Shown here in pieces: positions 21,514 through 56,189 of a DNA stretch of 64,000 bases. The position numbers and the translations under genes were made by a program. This DNA is from Chryseolinea sp. (GTDB lineage: Bacteria > Bacteroidota > Bacteroidia > Cytophagales > Cyclobacteriaceae), in NCBI GenBank assembly GCA_036787535.1, contig DAIQPD010000003.1, positions 51,505-115,504 of the forward strand, written 5' to 3'. Under the pieces are notes generated by a model. That model was not told the DNA's origin and made no database searches. It worked only from the letters and a program-made list of their open reading frames with translations. Positions within the stretch are counted from its first letter, which is position 1, and each line of letters opens with the position of its first letter.

Positions 21514-23952
21514 TCAAACACTCTCTGTTACAAACACACGTTTTACGCGCTCGCTCGTGCTGGTTAAAATTTCATACGGAATGGTCTGAATCTTTTTTGC
21601 CAATTCGCCAATAGGTAAGCCTTTACCAAATACAATTACTTCGTCACCTTCTCGCGCATCAATTCCGGTAATGTCAATCATTGTCATGTCCATGCATACA
21701 TTACCTATAACATGTGCACACTGACCATTAATCAAAACCTCCCCTCTGCCATTACTAAATGCGCGGCTAAAACCATCAGCATAACCAATAGCAATCGTGG
21801 CTAATGTCATTTCTTCTTCTGCTTGTCCTTTTCGACTATAGCCAATGCTTTCGCCTTTCGCTATTTTTTTTATTTGCGAAATAATTGTTTTCAGCGTTGC
21901 TACGGATTCGAGTTCATTAAAATTATAAGGCGTTGGGTCAACACCATAAAGTCCAATACCCAAACGCACCATGTCAAACTGCATTTCGGGAAGACGCAGA
22001 ATGCCAGAAGAATTTAGAATATGATAATCAGGTTTGTAACCGATCGCCTTGGAAATTCTATCACTCCATTGTAAAAATCGATTGGCTTGTTCACGCGAGA
22101 ATGCATCGTGATCTGACTCGTCAGCTCCAGCCAAATGACTGAAGATTGATGCAACCCGAATATTTGGATTGCTTTTAAGTTGTTCAATCAATACATCAAT
22201 ATCAGTCTCTTCAAAACCAAGTCGGTGCATCCCTGTATCTAACTTTAAATGAACAACACATTTTTTGCCTTGCAGGTAATGCAACATCGAATGTAAAATG
22301 TTTAAGCTATAAATTTCAGGCTCGAGGTTATGGGTAAGAAGTTGTTCAAAACTTTCTTCCGATGGATTCATTACCATTATAGGAAGCTTGATATTATTCT
22401 TTCTTAGCTCAATACCTTCATCAGCGTACGCAACACCCAGGTAATCTACCTTATGATACTGAAGCAAATTTCCGATTTCAATGCTTCCACTGCCATAAGC
22501 AAATGCTTTTACCATTACCATTAGTTTCGTAACGGGCTTCAACCGCGACTTGAAAAAGTTAAGGTTGTGAACTAATGCATCTAAGTCAATCTCCATCACC
22601 GTGCCGTGTACTTTGCGCTGAAGTTTGTGTATAATTTTTTCAAACTGAAATGACCGCGCACCCTTTACCAGAATCACTTCTTGTTGAAGTTCGTCCAGCG
22701 GAAATTGATCAAGAAAATCCTGAGTCGACAAATAGAATGATCCAAAAGCAAAAAGGTTTTTGTATCGATTAATGACAGGGCCAATTCCAACAAAGTGTGT
22801 TACATTGTTAGAGCTCACCAACTCAATAATTTTTTTTACTAGATCATTTTCATTAAGACCCGATTCTAATATATCGGATAGAATTAGACGCTTTATTTTC
22901 TTTTGCTGGTTCTCCAAGAATTGTAAGCTGATTTCCAATCCACCAAGATCATTGTTATACGTATCATCAATAAGCTGACATTGATTAATGCCCTCTTTCA
23001 GTTCGAGACGCATATTTACCGAGCGAAGATTTGCAATGCGTTTTTGTATTTGCTCAATTGAATACCCCAGTTTTAGCATGAGCGCCACACAATGAAAACA
23101 GTTTTCGATCGATGCCTTATCTGTAAAAGGCAGATTTAAAGAAGTTTGTTCTCCTGTATAGGTAATGGTGTAAGATGTTCCGTTTCGTTGAATGTAAACA
23201 TCATCTGTAGGAAGCTTACCCCATGAAAACGCAGGAGCAGATAATTTCTTAATTTCTTCTTCTACTGCTTTATAATCACTGCAGTACAGAATGAAATCAG
23301 TATTCCGAAAAAGTTTTAACTTCTCTTGAATCTTATGTTTTTGTGATTTGAATCCCTCATCGTGCGCTGAACCAATGTTGGTAAAGATTCCTATGGTTGG
23401 TTGAATTACCTTATTCAGATTCTCCATTTCTTTCTCTCGCGAAATGCCCGCTTCAAAAATTCCAAGCTGATGCTGTGGCTGAAGTTGCCACACGGCTAAA
23501 GGCACGCCTACTTGTGAGTTGTAGCTACCCGGACTTTTTGAAATTACCTTATCGAAAGACAGCAACTGATAAAGCCATTCCTTAATAATGGTTTTTCCAT
23601 TGCTCCCTGTTATGCCGATAACCGGAATGGAAAATTGCGAACGATGAAATGCCGCAATTTTTTGCAACGCTTTAATGGAAGACTTTACTTCCAGAATACT
23701 TGCGCCTTCCAGTGCCGGAATACTTTCTATTTTCTGTTCAACAACAAAAAGACGAATACCTTTTTTGTAGAGCTCATGAATATAGTGGTGTCCATCATGT
23801 CGATCACCTTTTATCGCAAAGAAAAGTGTGCCCTCATCTGCACTTACTTTTCTACTATCAATGGAGAGTGTTTTTACTATTCTGTTTTTAGAAACCAGAA
23901 TATTTCTTCCCCCGGTAATTTTCTCGAGCTGTTCAAAATGCATATCCATCAA
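21514..23952 (-). CDS. bifunctional UDP-MurNAc-tripeptide--D-Ala-D-Ala ligase (MurF) / alanine racemase (Alr)
   Basis: 812 aa. GITGSNGKT Mur-ligase P-loop in the N-terminal half, [12 protein letters not shown]-lysine motif in the C-terminal half. Confidence 0.9.
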
Positions 23953-33832: not shown

Positions 33833-34942
33833 ATGAAGCAAATTATTATAATGGGTGGTGGTTTAGGCGGTCTGGTTGCTTCTATCCGGTTAGCAAAATC
33901 AGGTATTCATTGCACCGTCATTGAAAAGAAATCATACCCCTTTCATCGTGTGTGCGGAGAATACATTTCAAATGAAACGATTCCCTATCTAAAATCTCTT
34001 GATCTATTTCCATTCGAATTTACGCCACCATCCATTACACGATTTTTGCTTTCATCTGTTAGCGGTAAAAGTACTATGATGGATCTTGACCTTGGAGGGT
34101 TTGGCATCAGCCGCTACACCTTCGATAATTTTCTCTATGAAAAAGCAAAACTACTTGGTGTTACATTTTTATTAAACACCGAAGTAGAAGAGGTTACATT
34201 CTCTGATAATACCTTTCTCATTAAAACACAATCTCAAAATCTAAAAGCCGATTTAGTTTTAGGAAGCTTTGGCAAGCGCTCAAAATTAGATGTCCAACTA
34301 AACCGAAGTTTCATTCAGAAACGATCTCCGTACGTAGGAATTAAATATCATCTCAAGACTAATCATCCTCACGATCTTATCGCGCTCCATAATTTTAAGG
34401 GTGGGTATTGTGGAATGAGCAACATTGAAGATGGCAAAACAACATTGTGTTACTTAACGCATCGGGATAACCTGCGTCAGTTCAAAAATATTCGGGAGAT
34501 GGAAGAGAATGTTCTCTTCCAAAATCCTTTACTTAAATCTGTTTTCATCAATTCTGAGTTTATTTTTGATAAACCCGAAACGATTAATGAAATATCATTC
34601 GAAACAAAGTCGCCAGTTGAAAATCATATCTTGATGATTGGAGATGCGGCCGGAATGATAACACCACTTTGCGGAAATGGGATGGCGATGGCTATTCACG
34701 CTTCCAAACTCGCCAGCGAATTAATTATAGAACACATTAACAACTCGCTTTCCCGCGAAGAAATGGAGAGAAGATATTCAAATCTCTGGCAGAAAAATTT
34801 TGGCTTACGATTATGGCGAGGACGACAGATACAGAAATTATTCGGAAGTCCGTTTGCATCCAACATTGCCATCAATTTAGCCATTCATGTAAAGCCAATT
34901 GCCAATAGCATTATGCGAAGCACACACGGAGATGGGTTCTGA
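33833..34942 (+). CDS. FAD-dependent oxidoreductase (geranylgeranyl-reductase / aromatic hydroxylase-like)
   Basis: 369 aa. IIIMGGGLGGLVAS Rossmann motif, CGEYIS motif, GDAAGMITPLCGNGM FAD motif. Confidence 0.85.
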   Translation: MKQIIIMGGGLGGLVASIRLAKSGIHCTVIEKKSYPFHRVCGEYISNETIPYLKSLDLFPFEFTPPSITRFLLSSVSGKSTMMDLDLGGFGISRYTFDNFLYEKAKLLGVTFLLNTEVEEVTFSDNTFLIKTQSQNLKADLVLGSFGKRSKLDVQLNRSFIQKRSPYVGIKYHLKTNHPHDLIALHNFKGGYCGMSNIEDGKTTLCYLTHRDNLRQFKNIREMEENVLFQNPLLKSVFINSEFIFDKPETINEISFETKSPVENHILMIGDAAGMITPLCGNGMAMAIHASKLASELIIEHINNSLSREEMERRYSNLWQKNFGLRLWRGRQIQKLFGSPFASNIAINLAIHVKPIANSIMRSTHGDGF

Positions 34943-34984
34943 TTAACTGATACTCCTCTAAATATTATGAATATGCCTGAATTT

Positions 34985-35068
34985 TTCTTTGTGAAACTTT
35001 GTGACTTCGTGTAATAGTGGCCTAATTTTTTGCCACTAAATCTCAAAGACACGAAGGATCACTAAGTT
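34985..35068. repeat. CACGAAG/CACAAAG-word palindromic element, copy 1
   Basis: GTGAAACTTTGTGACTTCGTG ... CAAAGACACGAAGGATCAC. Shares AAACTTTGTGACT and TTGTGACTTCGTG with the reverse complement of 57212-57255. Confidence 0.7.
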
Positions 35069-35145
35069 GCTCAACATCACTGAGTAAATGTGGTTTTGAA
35101 AGTCACCTTGAATGCCTATCTTAAGTTTTCATCAACCTAGACACC

Positions 35146-36147
35146 ATGAATAACGAGAACAGCAGGAGAGAATTTTTACGCTCACTAGGACTTATCAGTT
35201 TAAGTGCTGCAGCGGGCACAACATTTCTTTCAGCTTGTGGCGGCAAGTCGTCATCTGAAAGTACAGTAGATTCTACCGCCATATCATCAGCCATTCCAAA
35301 AGAATTATTCTTCAAGATATCATTGGCTGAATGGTCATTGCATAAATCATTATTCGATAAAAAACTGGATCACCTTGATTTTCCCGCCAGGGCAAAAAAT
35401 GATTTCGGCATATCGGCTGTAGAATATGTCAATCAGTTTTTCATGGACAAAGCAAAAGACCAAACCTATTTGGCAGAATTGAAGAAAAGGTGTGACGATC
35501 TTGGCGTTACCAGTGTACTCATTATGTGTGATGGTGAAGGGGAGCTAGGAGATCTTGATGCAAAGAAGCGCGCAAAAGCTGTTGAGAATCATTATAAGTG
35601 GGCAGAGGCCGCAAAGTTCTTAGGCTGTCATGCAATACGCGTAAACTCTTTTGGTATTGGCACACGTGAAGAAATAGCAAAAGCAGCAACAGATGGACTT
35701 CATTCACTATCTGAATTTGCAAAGGGACTCGACATCAATGTAATCGTTGAAAATCATGGAGGATATTCTTCGGATGGACAATGGCTCAGTGGTGTTATCA
35801 GTGGCACAGGTATGGCGAACTGTGGCATCTTACCTGACTTTGGAAATTTCTGTGTGAGACGCGAAAAAAATGATATGTGGGATTCCCCTTGTGTAGAAAT
35901 GTATGATCGCTATAAAGGTACTGCCGAAATGATGCCTCACGCAAAAGGTGTAAGCGCAAAGGCTTATGATTTTGATGAGCAAGGTAATTGCATTGAAACC
36001 GACTATGCAAAGATGTTACCTATCGTAAAAGCTGCAGGTTATACTGGTCACATCGGTATTGAATATGAGGGAAGTAAACTCAGTGAAGACGAAGGTATAC
36101 GCGCTACAAAAGCTTTGCTGGAAAGAGTTGGGATGGCAATTTCCTGA
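35146..36147 (+). CDS. xylose-isomerase-like TIM-barrel (sugar phosphate isomerase/epimerase family) with Tat signal and lipobox
   Basis: SRREFLRSLG twin-arginine motif, LSACGG lipobox. VENHGG and IGIEYEG are typical of the AP endonuclease 2/xylose isomerase fold. Confidence 0.8.
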   Translation: MNNENSRREFLRSLGLISLSAAAGTTFLSACGGKSSSESTVDSTAISSAIPKELFFKISLAEWSLHKSLFDKKLDHLDFPARAKNDFGISAVEYVNQFFMDKAKDQTYLAELKKRCDDLGVTSVLIMCDGEGELGDLDAKKRAKAVENHYKWAEAAKFLGCHAIRVNSFGIGTREEIAKAATDGLHSLSEFAKGLDINVIVENHGGYSSDGQWLSGVISGTGMANCGILPDFGNFCVRREKNDMWDSPCVEMYDRYKGTAEMMPHAKGVSAKAYDFDEQGNCIETDYAKMLPIVKAAGYTGHIGIEYEGSKLSEDEGIRATKALLERVGMAIS

Positions 36148-36172
36148 TCTGAAAAATGATTCTGTCAGGTGC

Positions 36173-37066
36173 TTATCCTAATGTATTTAAAATATGCGAT
36201 GAATCTAAAAACAAATAGATAAAAAAAGTATTTAAGCAAGTAGCAGAAATAAAGTTCAACCACATCGTATAGGTGTGGTTTGCTTTTGTTTCGTCTCTAA
36301 GTACCTGAATAAACCAAAAGAAAAAGAACAGTACCACAGGCGACATGGCCGCTAAAAAAATGAGGGCATACTGAAGAGAAAATGTAATGAAGAAGTAATA
36401 CATAAAGGCGGCACTTACAAAAACAAAAATACCTCCTACAAAATAAAACGTTCCGCGAATGCCTAGCATCCTGCTAAAGGTTTGATCCCCTCGTTTCCCA
36501 TCTTCTTCATGTTGATAAATTTGCGTCATGGGGTACGTACCCAGCAATAAAAATGTGGCCAGTAAACCAGGAATTAAAACAGCTGGTCTTATTGCCAGTT
36601 CAATGGGTAAAGCGCTAACGCCTACATAACACATCATAAACGTAAAGAGACCTTGAAATAGACTTACAATGATCCATCCGGCAATCGGATATTTTTTCAA
36701 TCGGATACTTGGATGACTATATGCCTTTGAAACCAATCCATACACCAGCAACATCATCGAAAAAGTAAGGCTCAGTTTTATGAATCCTAATACTATAGCA
36801 ATGACATCAAACGCAAGTGATAGGTAGAACAATCCCCGGTTTACGGGTGGCGGATTTTTTAACCCACCAATACTTTTTTCATCTTTATCGAAATAACTGT
36901 TATAACCATTGCTGGCCGGGTACAGAAAAAAATGAACGATCAAAAAAGTCCAGAGCAAAGTATGCTCGGTTATATTCGGTGTAACCGAAAGCGAAAACAA
37001 AAAAACAGGTAGCAGGAAATATGAAAATGGAATGCGCAGATGAAGCCACGAGGAGGTTGAAAACAT
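36173..37066 (-). CDS. UbiA family aromatic prenyltransferase
   Basis: 297 aa, multi-pass membrane protein. Asp-rich NGYNSYFDKDE motif. Confidence 0.85.
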   Translation of the reverse strand: MFSTSSWLHLRIPFSYFLLPVFLFSLSVTPNITEHTLLWTFLIVHFFLYPASNGYNSYFDKDEKSIGGLKNPPPVNRGLFYLSLAFDVIAIVLGFIKLSLTFSMMLLVYGLVSKAYSHPSIRLKKYPIAGWIIVSLFQGLFTFMMCYVGVSALPIELAIRPAVLIPGLLATFLLLGTYPMTQIYQHEEDGKRGDQTFSRMLGIRGTFYFVGGIFVFVSAAFMYYFFITFSLQYALIFLAAMSPVVLFFFFWFIQVLRDETKANHTYTMWLNFISATCLNTFFIYLFLDSSHILNTLG

Positions 37067-37115
37067 GTTTTACTTTTTTATGAAACTAATGTAGGCTTTT
37101 TTGGATTAGGTATTT

Positions 37116-37197
37116 GTTATCCGTTAATTGTTATCGGTTAATCGGTCTGCAAAACGACAAGAAAAATACTATTAACGGATAACCATTAACTGATAAC
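37116..37197. promoter_or_regulatory. 82-bp composite palindrome of four TTAAC-N-GATAAC 12-mers in the UbiA/PKS divergent intergenic region
   Basis: GTTATCCGTTAA-tt-GTTATCGGTTAA, then 30 nt, then TTAACGGATAAC-ca-TTAACTGATAAC. The arms are 23/26 complementary. Confidence 0.7.
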
Positions 37198-37203
37198 CTA
37201 AAC

Positions 37204-38310
37204 ATGAGTTTCATTACGGCAATTGGCACCGCCAACCCATCACATCAGTTTAGTCAGGAGGCTTTAGCCGATTTTATGGTGCGAAGCATGCAATTGAGCC
37301 ATGATGATGAACGAAAGCTCCGCACCATCTTTAGAGCAACAGGTATTGATAATCGGTACTCCGTTTTATCCGACTATGGAAAATCAAAAGACTTCGAATT
37401 CTACCCGAATACTCCCGACTTCGAACCATTTCCATCAACTCAAAAAAGACTGGAAGCTTTTCGCGATCATGCTTTGCCTTTGAGTCTGGCAGCGATTGAA
37501 AACATGAAACTCAACGCTTCCATTGATCTGCAAAAAATTACGCACCTCATTGTTGTAAGCTGCACAGGCATGTATGCCCCCGGACTTGATATTGATATTA
37601 TTAAATCACTTCAATTACCTACCACTACGCAACGAACCTGCATTACCTTTATGGGTTGCTATGCTGCGTTCAATGCACTTAAAGTAGCCGATGCTTACTG
37701 TACATCAGATGCAAATTCGAAAGTGCTCATTGTTTGCACGGAGCTTTGCAGTTTGCATTTTCAAAAAACACCTACTGAAAATAATTTACTAGCTAACGCT
37801 TTGTTTGCCGATGGCTCTGCTGCTGTTTTAGTTGAAGCCAATAGTGATCAGCCTGTAACATTATCACTCGAAGAGTTTCACAACGACCTTGCGCCCGAGG
37901 GTGAACACGATATGGCATGGAGTGTTGGTGATCTTGGTTTCGAAATGAAATTATCGGCTTACGTTCCATCCATTATTCAATCCGGAATTCAACAGCTGAC
38001 AAATTCTTTATTGAAAAAGATCGCGAAAGAAATACAAGACATCAAGCATATTGCCATTCATCCGGGAGGGAAAAAAATTGTAGAGGTAATTGAGCATCAG
38101 ATGAATTTAAGTAAGGACCAGAACAAACATGCGCTCGAAGTGTTGAAACAATATGGTAATATGTCATCGCCCACCGTTTTGTTTGTATTAAATGAAATTT
38201 TCAAAACGTTATCAAAGGCTGACGATGGTGAAAGAATCCTGAGTCTTGCTTTTGGCCCCGGGCTTACATTAGAAAGTATGGTTCTAAAAATACATTCAGC
38301 AAATGCCTGA
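37204..38310 (+). CDS. type III polyketide synthase (chalcone/stilbene synthase family)
   Basis: 368 aa. Catalytic contexts VSCTGMYAPG (Cys), AIHPGGKKI (His), YGNMSSPTVLF (Asn), and the AFGPG loop. Confidence 0.92.
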   Translation: MSFITAIGTANPSHQFSQEALADFMVRSMQLSHDDERKLRTIFRATGIDNRYSVLSDYGKSKDFEFYPNTPDFEPFPSTQKRLEAFRDHALPLSLAAIENMKLNASIDLQKITHLIVVSCTGMYAPGLDIDIIKSLQLPTTTQRTCITFMGCYAAFNALKVADAYCTSDANSKVLIVCTELCSLHFQKTPTENNLLANALFADGSAAVLVEANSDQPVTLSLEEFHNDLAPEGEHDMAWSVGDLGFEMKLSAYVPSIIQSGIQQLTNSLLKKIAKEIQDIKHIAIHPGGKKIVEVIEHQMNLSKDQNKHALEVLKQYGNMSSPTVLFVLNEIFKTLSKADDGERILSLAFGPGLTLESMVLKIHSANA

Positions 38311-39010
38311 TTTTTCTAAACGATCAGAAGGTATTGAGATTATGGACGATCTTCAGTGCTCAGGCGAAGTGGTTGATCAAACTTTGCGTGAACTTGAAGT
38401 CATCAATACCTGGCTTGGTGGAAATCAGGTAACGATAAACGGGTTGGCAAAACTTTTAAAAGATTCAGATCCATCAAAAGAAATTACCATTCTCGATGTG
38501 GGCTGTGGGGGTGGTGATATTCTTCGGCTCATAGATGCGTGGGCAAAGCGAAAAAACAAAAAAGTAAAACTCGTTGGCATTGATGCCAATCCAAACATCA
38601 TTGCCTTTGCAAAAAATAATCTGAACGACTTACCGCATGTCCAATTTGAGTCGATTGACATTTTTTCATCAGAATTTCAATCCATTACATGCGATGTAGT
38701 TATTGGTACGCTTTTCTTTCATCACTTCTCACAACACCAATTGAGTCTGTTCTTTTCAGGACTAAAAAAACAAGTTCGCATTGGCATTGTTATAAATGAC
38801 ATTCATCGTCATGCGTTGGCTTACTATTCCATCAAAATTTTAACAAGTTTGTTTTCGAAGTCAGCCATGGTAAAATTCGATGCGCCATTATCGGTTCTAC
38901 GCGCCTTCACAAAAAGTGAATTGATAGAAATACTCACAAAAGCAAAAATGCGCAACTTCAGCATTCATTGGAAATGGGCGTTTCGCTGGCAAGTTGTTAT
39001 GACTGTTTAA
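38303..39010 (+). CDS. class I SAM-dependent methyltransferase
   Basis: 235 aa. ILDVGCGGGD motif I. The start overlaps the PKS stop by 8 nt. Confidence 0.85.
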   Translation: MPDFSKRSEGIEIMDDLQCSGEVVDQTLRELEVINTWLGGNQVTINGLAKLLKDSDPSKEITILDVGCGGGDILRLIDAWAKRKNKKVKLVGIDANPNIIAFAKNNLNDLPHVQFESIDIFSSEFQSITCDVVIGTLFFHHFSQHQLSLFFSGLKKQVRIGIVINDIHRHALAYYSIKILTSLFSKSAMVKFDAPLSVLRAFTKSELIEILTKAKMRNFSIHWKWAFRWQVVMTV

Positions 39011-39083: not shown

Positions 39084-39638
39084 ATGAAAATCATCCATAT
39101 ACTTATCCTCTTTTCATTTATCGGATTAGCCGCATGCTCGTCTGGCGTTTTAGGAAAGAAAGTGAAAGAACCTTTTCAGGGAAATGCATACGAATCAAAT
39201 AACCGATTCTGGAGAAGCACCGGTAAAGGTGTAAGTTCACAAGATAACATTGCACGATCGAAAGCCGATCTTGATGCTAAAGCGCAATTAGGTGGACAGG
39301 TAAACACCACAATGAAACAAGTAGCGGATCAATACCTGGGTCAAACTGAAAATGAAAAAGGGGCAGATGTTGCCGACAAATTTCAAAGTCTGGTACGCCA
39401 AACCATGAACACCAATATTTCGGATTTGCGAAAGATGGACGAGAAGAAATTCTTTAATGATAAGACAAACGAATACACAGTCTTCATTGCCTACGAAATA
39501 AAGAAGAATGCCATGTTGCGCTTTATGAAAAAGCAAGCCAAAACTGACAAGACAATCGATGAACGCCAGCGTGAGGTCATTGAGAAGATTCTTGATGAGG
39601 AAATTGAAAAAGCTGACGCAGCGGATAAAGAGGATTAA
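39084..39638 (+). CDS. hypothetical lipoprotein
   Basis: 184 aa. Lipobox IGLAAC, charged helical remainder. Confidence 0.6.
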   Translation: MKIIHILILFSFIGLAACSSGVLGKKVKEPFQGNAYESNNRFWRSTGKGVSSQDNIARSKADLDAKAQLGGQVNTTMKQVADQYLGQTENEKGADVADKFQSLVRQTMNTNISDLRKMDEKKFFNDKTNEYTVFIAYEIKKNAMLRFMKKQAKTDKTIDERQREVIEKILDEEIEKADAADKED

Positions 39639-39665
39639 GATTTTATTTTACAGTTTAAATTCGCA

Positions 39666-39703
39666 AAAGCCTTACTCACCACTGAGTAGGGCTTTTTGTT
39701 TTT
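39666..39703 (+). terminator. rho-independent terminator
   Basis: AAAGCCTTACTCA-ccac-TGAGTAGGGCTTT, 13-bp stem with one G-U pair, followed by TTTTGTTTTT. Confidence 0.8.
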
Positions 39704-46877: not shown

Positions 46878-46899
46878 CGATTAACGGATAACGATTAAC
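46878..46899. repeat. TTAACGGATAAC-word element
   Basis: CGATTAACGGATAACGATTAAC. An exact copy of the 12-mer found at 37172-37183 and, as its reverse complement, at 37116-37127. Confidence 0.7.
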
Positions 46900-47055: not shown

Positions 47056-48165
47056 TTGGATTTTGGTTCCGTTCAATTTTTCATCGCACGCCATTTTGGT
47101 TTTTGTTACGGTGTAGAAAACGCCATTGAAATAAGTTATAAAGCCCTAGAAGAAAATCCGGATAAACGTGTGTTTCTGTTAAGTCAGATGATTCACAATC
47201 AGGAAGTGAATCAGGATCTTCAGAGTCGCGGCATTCAGTTTATTATGGATACTGATGGAACACAATTTATTCCCTGGGGCGAACTCACAAAAGAAGATGT
47301 TGTTATTATTCCCGCCTTTGGCACTACACTGGAAATTGAACATCTCTTATTAGATAAAGAAATTGAAGTTCAAAAATATAATACTACTTGTCCGTTTGTT
47401 GAAAAGGTTTGGAACCGTTCTGAAAAATTAGGTACAGATGATTTTACGGTGATCATTCACGGCAAACCGAAACATGAAGAAACGCGCGCAACGTTTTCAC
47501 ATAGTTCAAAAGGAGCTCCATCGATAATTGTTCGCGATATTAACGATGCTCATCGACTTGGTGAATACATTAGTGGAAAGAAATCCGGTAATGATTTTCT
47601 TAAAGACTTTGCAGGTCAGTACTCCGAAAATTTTGATCCAACAAAAAACCTTAAACGCGTTGGTGTTGTAAATCAAACCACCATGCTCGCGACTGAGACA
47701 CAAGCCATCGCAGATTATTTTAAGCAATTGATGATTGCGCTATTTGGATCAGAAGAAATTAAAAATCATTTTGCTGATACACGTGATACGTTGTGTTACG
47801 CTACAAACGACAATCAGGATGCTACCTATCAACTTTTAGAAACCGATGCCGATTTGGCAATCGTAGTAGGGGGATATAATAGTTCGAATACCTCTCACTT
47901 AGTAGAACTCTGCGAACGAAAGTTTCCTACCTATTTTATTAATTCAGAAAACGAGATTTTTTCAAACAAAGAGATTCAACACTTCGATTATCACAAGCGG
48001 GAAAAAATCCGCACAGAGAATTATCTGCCTGTAAAAAATCCAACAAAAATTATCCTCACAAGTGGAGCATCCTGCCCCGATACATTAGTGGACCGGGTGT
48101 TGCTCCGACTGTTGGATTTCTTTGAAGACTCTAAAAAGATCGAAGATCTATTGAAGGAGTTCTAA
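47056..48165 (+). CDS. ispH: 4-hydroxy-3-methylbut-2-enyl diphosphate reductase
   Basis: 369 aa from the TTG. GFCYGVENAIE first-Cys motif, NTTCPFV second Cys, SGASCPD third Cys. The frame is open upstream to 46933 (see findings). Confidence 0.9.
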   Translation: MDFGSVQFFIARHFGFCYGVENAIEISYKALEENPDKRVFLLSQMIHNQEVNQDLQSRGIQFIMDTDGTQFIPWGELTKEDVVIIPAFGTTLEIEHLLLDKEIEVQKYNTTCPFVEKVWNRSEKLGTDDFTVIIHGKPKHEETRATFSHSSKGAPSIIVRDINDAHRLGEYISGKKSGNDFLKDFAGQYSENFDPTKNLKRVGVVNQTTMLATETQAIADYFKQLMIALFGSEEIKNHFADTRDTLCYATNDNQDATYQLLETDADLAIVVGGYNSSNTSHLVELCERKFPTYFINSENEIFSNKEIQHFDYHKREKIRTENYLPVKNPTKIILTSGASCPDTLVDRVLLRLLDFFEDSKKIEDLLKEF

Positions 48166-56163: not shown

Positions 56164-56189
56164 GAGTTAACCGTTAATGGTTAATAATG
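56164..56189. repeat. TTAAC-word element
   Basis: GAGTTAACCGTTAATGGTTAATAATG. The reverse complement contains TTAACCATTAACGGTTAAC. Confidence 0.55.

Follow-up and report, generated by a model that had tools for sequence, protein, structure and literature searches.

What do the genes for a type III polyketide synthase (PKS), an S-adenosylmethionine (SAM)-dependent methyltransferase (MT), a UbiA-superfamily membrane prenyltransferase and a flavin adenine dinucleotide (FAD)-dependent enzyme make when they lie side by side in a member of the Bacteroidota? We addressed this question with a 64,000-nt stretch of DNA (called the window for simplicity) from a metagenome-assembled genome of Chryseolinea sp. 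(Cytophagales, Bacteroidota), in which the four functions span 5.2 kb. Type III PKS clusters account for 9-11% of the predicted clusters in Flavobacteriaceae and are among the most frequent ones (PMC7440613, PMC10734526). The four genes of the window are a real conserved cluster and one biosynthetic unit, an uncharacterised relative of known type III PKS phenolic-lipid clusters and not a new kind of pathway. On balance, the cluster probably makes a prenylated, O-methylated and ring-hydroxylated alkylresorcinol, i.e. an alkyl-methoxy-hydroquinone or quinone meroterpenoid, as a membrane lipid. The observations comprise the domain identities and catalytic residues of the proteins, their conserved synteny and a natural UbiA-PKS fusion.

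Four genes form a conserved cluster

The open reading frames (ORFs) were exactly where an earlier note on this DNA had placed them, and every peptide motif quoted there was found in the translations: the flavoenzyme at 33833-34942 (+ strand, 369 aa, FAD_binding_3), the UbiA homologue at 36173-37066 (- strand, 297 aa, PF01040), the type III PKS at 37204-38310 (+ strand, 368 aa, N- and C-terminal Chal_sti_synt domains) and the class I SAM-dependent MT at 38303-39010 (+ strand, 235 aa, PRK06202-like). All four proteins score above the curated Pfam cut-offs. The UbiA and PKS genes diverge from a gap of 137 bp (37067-37203), as had been described, and the PKS stop codon overlaps the MT start by 8 nt (ATGCCTGA; ATG at 38303-38305, TGA at 38308-38310), an arrangement that suggests translational coupling. 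The flavoprotein gene, which the note had placed 2.2 kb upstream, is separated from the UbiA gene by a TIM-barrel gene (35146-36147).

We retrieved 80 genomic loci with PKS relatives and mapped 16 local window proteins onto them by tblastn and family profiles; the counts given here cover the 62 loci with enough flanking DNA. UbiA, MT and flavoenzyme genes all stood beside the PKS gene in 36/62 loci. Smaller sets included the MT alone (7/62), the MT together with the flavoenzyme (1/62) and the flavoenzyme alone (1/62), and at 8/62 loci the PKS had no partner gene. Counted singly, UbiA adjoined the PKS in 45 of the 62 loci and the flavoenzyme was syntenic with it in 38, while the MT abutted or overlapped the PKS in most of them. 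The four-gene set occurred in Cytophagales, Sphingobacteriales, Chitinophagales and unclassified Bacteroidia, and its genes stood in at least three different orders: Chryseolinea, Ohtaekwangia, Belliella and Algoriphagus have FAD(+) UbiA(-) PKS(+) MT(+), Pedobacter and Paradesertivirga have UbiA(-) PKS MT FAD, and Chitinophagales and unclassified Bacteroidia have a co-directional UbiA-PKS-MT-FAD arrangement in which gene ends often overlap (FAD denotes the flavoenzyme gene). Close relatives share the entire neighbourhood and are hence little informative; at distant loci only the UbiA, PKS, MT and flavoprotein genes remain together, in changed order. Outside the Bacteroidota, a Trueperaceae locus (L064) reads PKS-MT-FAD_binding_3-UbiA and a further locus (L083) PKS-FAD_binding_3-UbiA. 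Extra conserved genes between PKS and MT could be dismissed, as only scattered small insertions were seen in some loci. With the four genes as neighbours in 36/62 loci, which come from several taxonomic orders and show rearranged gene orders, their co-occurrence is far beyond chance. The synteny across Bacteroidota that the earlier note had put up for checking holds in these three architectures and additionally in a fusion of UbiA and PKS in Dyadobacter.

This UbiA::type III PKS fusion of 652 aa (WP_149244224.1, Dyadobacter sp. 32) emerged when 1.84 billion representative proteins were searched exhaustively with the UbiA homologue. Since five further assemblies carry clustered proteins (at least 90% identical) of equal 652-aa length, an assembly artefact can be discounted. 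The fusion gene is followed by MT and flavoenzyme homologues with 38% and 40% identity to their window counterparts, respectively. Some Spirosomaceae (Fibrella, Arsenicibacter) have UbiA and PKS only. Together with these two-gene loci, the fusion suggests that it is the PKS product itself that is prenylated, at an early step, and the fusion also speaks for the polyketide being passed directly to the prenyltransferase.

The PKS is a predicted long-chain alkylresorcinol synthase

The PKS scored 94.3 bits against Chal_sti_synt_N and 90.6 bits against Chal_sti_synt_C (cut-offs 27) and is 100% identical to a Chryseolinea sp. protein. Its best relatives of solved structure, namely Ectocarpus PKS1 (4B0N, 163.6 bits), Dictyostelium Steely1 and M. 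tuberculosis PKS18, are all distant. Residues were numbered against a manually entered reference sequence of alfalfa chalcone synthase (CHS) 2. The catalytic triad consists of C152 (FMGCYAAF), H286 (IHPGG) and N319 (YGNMSS) and is invariant in 77 homologues. VSCTGMYAPG, which had been listed as a catalytic context, aligns instead to the Thr132/Ser133 region of CHS, the catalytic cysteine being C152.

T121, C182 and F186 occupy the three positions that define the long-acyl tunnel of PKS18, BpsA and CepA, and K291 falls on a contact position for the acyl carrier protein (ACP) in the alignment (PMC7064976, PMC6274091). W239 aligns to CHS Gly256, which is the position of ArsB Trp281 and CepA Trp243. 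All 57 homologues with a UbiA neighbour (57/57) have T121, C182 and W239. Published work shows that, with a Trp in the place of ArsB Trp281, a resorcinol formed by aldol closure is favoured relative to a pyrone, that long-chain alkylresorcinol synthases have this Trp together with small Thr/Cys/(Phe, Leu, Ala) tunnel residues and that bacterial enzymes accepting ACP-bound starters have Arg or Lys at the K291 position (PMC7064976, PMC6274091). The window PKS has both features of the ArsB/CepA/BpsA-type long-chain alkylresorcinol synthases, i.e. the Trp and the tunnel residues. In view of its triad, the T121/C182/F186 tunnel and W239, we predict it to be a long-chain 5-alkylresorcinol synthase. 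Where the earlier note had left the core as an alkylresorcinol or pyrone, the residues favour an alkylresorcinol built on a long-chain starter as the predicted product. In many JGI records, close homologues of the PKS bear the name 'prepilin-type processing-associated H-X9-DG protein', evidently a mis-annotation that has been propagated, as all chalcone-synthase Pfam domains are present in these proteins.

The adjoining MT matched Methyltransf_25 (47 bits) as well as Methyltransf_31 and _11, and scored 148.8 bits against the NCBIfam model NF004851 (PRK06202), below its cut-off of 243; the Trueperaceae counterpart exceeds this cut-off. It is 38% identical to the MT of a hierridin-type locus in Synechococcales (L061), and both have PRK06202 as their best NCBIfam match. 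Pfam detected no isoprenylcysteine carboxyl methyltransferase (ICMT) domain in the window MT, which has a class I Rossmann fold instead. The protein is a predicted O-methyltransferase.

The flavoenzyme is a predicted ring hydroxylase

The flavoenzyme (FAD_binding_3, 43.7 bits) belongs to a family of its own in the superfamily of geranylgeranyl reductases and group A flavin monooxygenases. GxGxxG, YPxH(R/K)VCGEYxS, GGFGxSR, GGYCG and GDAAGMITPLCGNGM are near-invariant motifs of this family. Apart from its best NCBIfam match, which is considered below, it matched QhpG (65 bits), LodB (57 bits) and UbiH (55 bits). QhpG is named a flavin-dependent monooxygenase in NCBIfam, and LodB and GoxB, the latter a further related model, are maturases; all three hydroxylate Trp rings. 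The flavoenzyme is 35% identical to the oxidoreductase of the Synechococcales PKS>MT>FAD locus L061, at which there is no UbiA gene. The L061 protein keeps all family motifs and has the same family matches as its counterpart in the window. Since hierridin B has one ring oxygen more than an alkylresorcinol, the hierridin pathway needs a hydroxylation, and the only oxidoreductase of this cluster type is likely the hydroxylase. In Trueperaceae (L064), Balneolaceae (L057) and at L083, classical FAD_binding_3 aromatic hydroxylases are encoded at the flavoenzyme position. On account of the hierridin-type cluster and these classical hydroxylases, we favour a ring hydroxylase over a prenyl reductase and predict that the flavoenzyme hydroxylates the ring of the phenolic lipid.

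The flavoenzyme might instead be a prenyl-chain reductase of the geranylgeranyl-reductase type that saturates a prenyl double bond, as in the dihydrogeranyl group made by the Agq enzymes of the actinomycete Actinoplanes missouriensis; in that case the product, a methylated, (dihydro)prenylated alkylresorcinol, would not have the extra ring oxygen. The name of the Agq product shows a reduced prenyl group (PMC7692728). The best NCBIfam match of the flavoenzyme is TIGR02032 (GG-red-SF) at 96.8 bits, compared with 55 bits for UbiH-type hydroxylases. Its invariant Cys41-Gly-Glu motif resembles the catalytic-Cys region of geranylgeranyl reductases. The score stays below the GG-red-SF cut-off of 158.8, however, and the region equivalent to YxWxFP, the substrate motif of geranylgeranyl reductases, reads GGYCGMS, and membership among the true geranylgeranyl reductases was rejected on this score and motif. 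Gene neighbourhoods argue in the same direction: the family occurs with all its motifs in the UbiA-free cluster L061, adjoins a PKS without UbiA in Mucilaginibacter (L043), is replaced by classical aromatic hydroxylases in Trueperaceae, Balneolaceae and L083, and tracks the MT (37/38 loci) more than UbiA. We therefore regard a prenyl reductase as unlikely. A flavin-dependent halogenase, to which the best PDB matches belong (25-42 bits), was dismissed, as the flavoenzyme contains no sequence resembling WxWxIP, the motif of these halogenases. AlphaFold2 run without an alignment gave an unusable model of the flavoenzyme (mean predicted local distance difference test score 33, predicted template modelling score 0.23).

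Proposed product and its possible role

In the pathway that we propose, the type III PKS would load a long-chain fatty acyl-CoA or acyl-ACP, add three malonyl-CoA and release a 5-alkylresorcinol after aldol closure. The UbiA enzyme, located in the membrane next to the PKS, would use a prenyl diphosphate to prenylate either the ring or a phenolic oxygen, the flavoenzyme would add a third ring oxygen and the class I MT would O-methylate a phenol. Substrates, step order, regiochemistry, prenyl chain length and physiological role are those that we infer for this pathway.

Several points weigh against this product. No characterised type III PKS enzyme, product or mutant in Bacteroidota was found in literature searches, and synthases predicted from their Trp to make resorcinols can yield mostly pyrones in vitro (PMC7064976). 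The best family match of the flavoenzyme is to the geranylgeranyl-reductase model discussed above, and in the UbiA homologue acidic residues of the canonical motifs are replaced by Ser57, Lys64 and Gln185. The characterised actinomycete agqABCD cluster is likened to the window by its described functions, and the sequence comparison covered the hierridin-type locus L061. Full decoration of the product is not universal either, because UbiA and MT stand beside the PKS without a flavoenzyme within 8 kb in 6/62 loci and UbiA alone accompanies it in 3/62.

The same enzymes could also produce a redox-active polyprenyl methoxy-benzoquinone as an extra quinone for respiration, with a head group derived from a polyketide and not from chorismate, in analogy to the mycobacterial polyketide quinones and with ubiquinone-like tailoring by UbiA, a flavin hydroxylase and a SAM methyltransferase. 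The mycobacterial compounds are reported to act as electron carriers (Anand 2015, cited in PMC10896814). The enzyme set mirrors the logic of UbiA, UbiH and UbiG/E, the flavoenzyme and the MT have weak matches to UbiH/Coq6, UbiE and UbiG models, and the cluster is broadly conserved in aerobic Bacteroidota; moreover, the fusion and the loci with UbiA and PKS only suggest that prenylation comes first, as in ubiquinone synthesis. We nevertheless consider a respiratory quinone decidedly unlikely. The PKS tunnel predicts a long alkyl chain and hence two lipid tails, unlike in known respiratory quinones, and the cluster is patchy, many related PKS loci lacking UbiA or the flavoenzyme. Respiratory genes are not consistently linked to it: a gene for NDH-2 was seen once, near the Dyadobacter cluster, and at no other locus examined, so that this link was rejected. 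It is more doubtful still that a polyprenylated methoxy-benzoquinol with a type III PKS-derived ring acts as a higher-potential respiratory carrier in aerobic Bacteroidota, which to our knowledge have only menaquinones. If true, a ubiquinone- or plastoquinone-like cofactor would be reached here by a convergent route independent of chorismate, in which a distinctive UbiA subfamily prenylates a polyketide directly, as the fusion suggests.

A redox quinone would change the picture of respiration in Bacteroidota, and a membrane phenolic lipid could influence the properties of the envelope and the tolerance of antibiotics, as is the case in Streptomyces griseus. The present analysis defines a conserved four-gene unit whose core chemistry is predicted from published specificity residues, and it names culturable carriers, i.e. 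Ohtaekwangia koreensis, Belliella, Pedobacter superstes and Dyadobacter sp. 32.

The UbiA homologue has altered metal-binding motifs

The prenyl group of the proposed alkylresorcinol lipid would be attached by the UbiA homologue, which scored 59.7 bits against PF01040 (cut-off 34.2) and has at least six strongly hydrophobic 19-residue segments, indicating a multi-pass membrane protein. Single-sequence phmmer returned no PDB match; a family profile aligned over the whole length to both DGGGP synthase (6M31) and Aeropyrum ApUbiA (4OD4). With 791 representatives at E<=0.001 among the 1.84 billion, the homologue belongs to a subfamily that is small, stands apart and is associated with type III PKS genes. 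Its motifs were compared with the canonical Asp-rich motifs NDxxDxxxD and DxxxD. Motif 1 reads N56-S57-Y-F-D60-K-D62-E63-K64 and motif 2 Q185-H-E-E-D189; N53, N56, S57, D60, D62, Y184, Q185 and D189 are invariant in the subfamily, and for Ser57 and Gln185 this includes the Trueperaceae member.

These substitutions bear on the possibility that the homologue is not an aromatic prenyltransferase and either transfers another group, uses another acceptor or merely anchors or scaffolds the PKS at the membrane. The invariant Ser57 stands where DGGGP synthase has Asp, Lys64 where DGGGP synthase and ApUbiA both have Asp, and the invariant Gln185 in place of the first Asp of motif 2. The subfamily is also far from mainstream UbiA enzymes, as seen from its small size and the missing phmmer match, some members have an extra C-terminal domain of ~200 aa or a YdbH-like domain, and a member from Chloroflexota lies beside tryptophan-biosynthesis genes with no PKS nearby. 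Against this, Asn56, Asp60, Asp62, Glu63 and Asp189 are kept, as are the Gly and Thr/Ser that usually follow motif 2, the position of Ser57 is occupied by Asn in ApUbiA, and the profile spans two solved prenyltransferases over their whole length. The UbiA-like enzyme of the analogous actinomycete cluster, moreover, is reported to prenylate the polyketide in vitro (PMC4044012, citing Awakawa 2011). We thus find it improbable that the homologue is anything other than an aromatic prenyltransferase, and the subfamily with its altered metal-binding motifs may provide a useful new enzyme of this kind.

A few further observations concern the subfamily at large. Among the relatives P0381, P0402, P0473, P0474, P0487 and P0502, several carry the extra C-terminal domain, which is soluble and without Pfam match, and one is fused to the YdbH-like domain, of the intermembrane lipid-transport type. 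The gene of the Chloroflexota member (L081, 6001-6864) directly follows trpD, trpC, trpF and trpB-like genes, and because of this neighbourhood the subfamily may accept other aromatic substrates. When homologues were searched from the Trueperaceae UbiA, the named matches were Deinococcales, Trueperaceae and Chloroflexota, with no Actinomycetota among them, and tblastn of the UbiA homologue against plasmids gave no match.

Promoter region and flanking genes

The divergent UbiA/PKS promoter region contains, at 37116-37197, an inverted repeat of two arrays, each built of 7-bp GTTAWYN units, with four copies of GTTATC[C/G]GTTAAT. There are 12 array matches in the window versus 3.4 expected by chance, and the arrays are kept only in the closest Chryseolinea relatives; from their sequence, they could be a candidate operator site or a genome-specific repeat. 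Similar arrays were seen at 46880-46899, ~155 bp upstream of the ispH (LytB) ORF, and at 56166-56185, just past the stop codon of the RNase G gene. The ispH gene (47056-48165, + strand), 8 kb downstream of the cluster, encodes the last step of the methylerythritol phosphate pathway to prenyl diphosphates; its product of 369 aa is longer than the Pfam model span and hence has an insertion. The shared upstream heptamer array is its only link to the cluster. A sigma-70 promoter scan gave 16 sites as compared to 17.7 in shuffled sequence and is uninformative, because Bacteroidota use different promoter elements. Scans of the window for tRNA genes and Rfam families found nothing.

The TIM-barrel gene (35146-36147, + strand) encodes a xylose-isomerase-like protein with a twin-arginine (Tat) signal (RREFLRS) and a lipobox. 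Its distribution is limited to some Chryseolinea, Ohtaekwangia and related lineages, and because many related loci lack it, it represents a lineage-specific insertion; its patchy presence, Tat signal and lipobox led us to reject it as a pathway member. Downstream of the MT, a gene at 39084-39638 (+ strand) encodes a lipoprotein of 184 aa with signal peptide and lipobox (LAAC) but no Pfam or NCBIfam match. As no terminator was found between the two genes, it is probably co-transcribed with PKS and MT, and an intrinsic-terminator-like hairpin at 39665-39696 (+ strand, 14-bp stem followed by a T run) would end this transcript. The lipoprotein gene adjoins the MT only in Cytophagales loci, and its membership in the pathway is uncertain; it was seen to stay by the cluster even where nothing else of the neighbourhood is kept (L016-L022). 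Elsewhere in the window, an 812-aa protein (21514-23952, - strand) unites a complete alanine racemase with Mur ligase domains and appears to be a fused cell-wall precursor enzyme.

Comparison with known systems

[quoted passage not shown] These meroterpenoid pathways differ in being eukaryotic, in their unlinked genes and short-chain starters and in the C-prenylation of a resorcylic acid.

Among the bacterial synthases, the window PKS shares its catalytic triad with ArsB (Azotobacter), BpsA (Bacillus), CepA (Entotheonella) and PKS18 (Mycobacterium), and its Thr/Cys/Phe acyl-tunnel positions with BpsA and CepA (PMC7064976, PMC6274091). The partner genes set it apart from ArsB, the ars cluster comprising e.g. 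a type I fatty acid synthase. EboC/Ubi-297 of the flavobacterial ebo cluster is likewise a UbiA-superfamily protein of ~297-299 aa from Bacteroidota, but it has an E. coli-type DxxDxxxD motif and lies with eboA, eboB, eboD and eboE (PMC9235831). An identity of the two was rejected, as the window UbiA has NSYFDKDE and no ebo neighbours; the TIM-barrel gene beside it, which is convergent, carries an export signal and is missing from many relatives, is no ebo counterpart.

The srsABC cluster of Streptomyces griseus, which the earlier note had taken as a model, also combines a PKS with methylation and flavin hydroxylation to turn alkylresorcinols into alkylquinones, which are membrane phenolic lipids (PMC6669644, PMC10896814, PMC13608877). 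This logic holds for the window. Homology of the methyltransferases does not, SrsB being a member of the ICMT family (PMC6669644) and the window MT a soluble class I enzyme. In addition, srs has no UbiA gene, so the resemblance is one of analogy and not of common descent of the tailoring enzymes. A UbiA gene divergent from srsABC has been described in Jiangella (PMC13608877).

Closer in function is agqABCD of Actinoplanes missouriensis, which is reported to make alkyl-O-dihydrogeranyl-methoxyhydroquinones (Awakawa et al. 2011, ChemBioChem 12:439, as cited in PMC10896814, PMC4044012, PMC7692728) with a membrane prenyltransferase that O-prenylates the polyketide in vitro (PMC4044012). As in the window, a type III PKS, an oxygenase, an MT and a UbiA-like prenyltransferase are clustered according to these sources; phylum and gene order are different. 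The earlier note knew of no characterised product for the four-gene combination in Bacteroidota. Literature searches likewise turned up none, but the combination itself has a precedent in agqABCD, and its novelty is lower than the note implied. Prenylation is reportedly the last step of the Agq pathway. The UbiA and PKS-only loci and the fusion suggest early prenylation for the window cluster, which would resemble ubiquinone or cannabinoid biosynthesis more than that of Agq. An agq-like gene set lies beside the type III PKS gene losA in Micromonospora, where the protein at the flavoenzyme position carries an acyl-CoA-dehydrogenase-type annotation (PMC7587189); because of this annotation, the actinomycete hydroxylase is probably not homologous to the geranylgeranyl-reductase-like flavoenzyme of the window.

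With respect to the tailoring enzymes, the hierridin (hidABC) clusters of picocyanobacteria have a type III PKS, a class I MT and an oxidoreductase (PMC8086630). The Synechococcales locus L061, itself uncharacterised, was likened to them by gene families and by its order PKS>MT>FAD, which matches hidC>hidA>hidB (PMC8086630), and its MT and oxidoreductase are of the same families as those of the window. Almost all cyanobacterial clusters differ from the window in having no prenyltransferase, one Raphidiopsis cluster being the exception (PMC8086630). The Chryseolinea cluster is built from tailoring enzymes of the hierridin type together with an unusual subfamily of UbiA.

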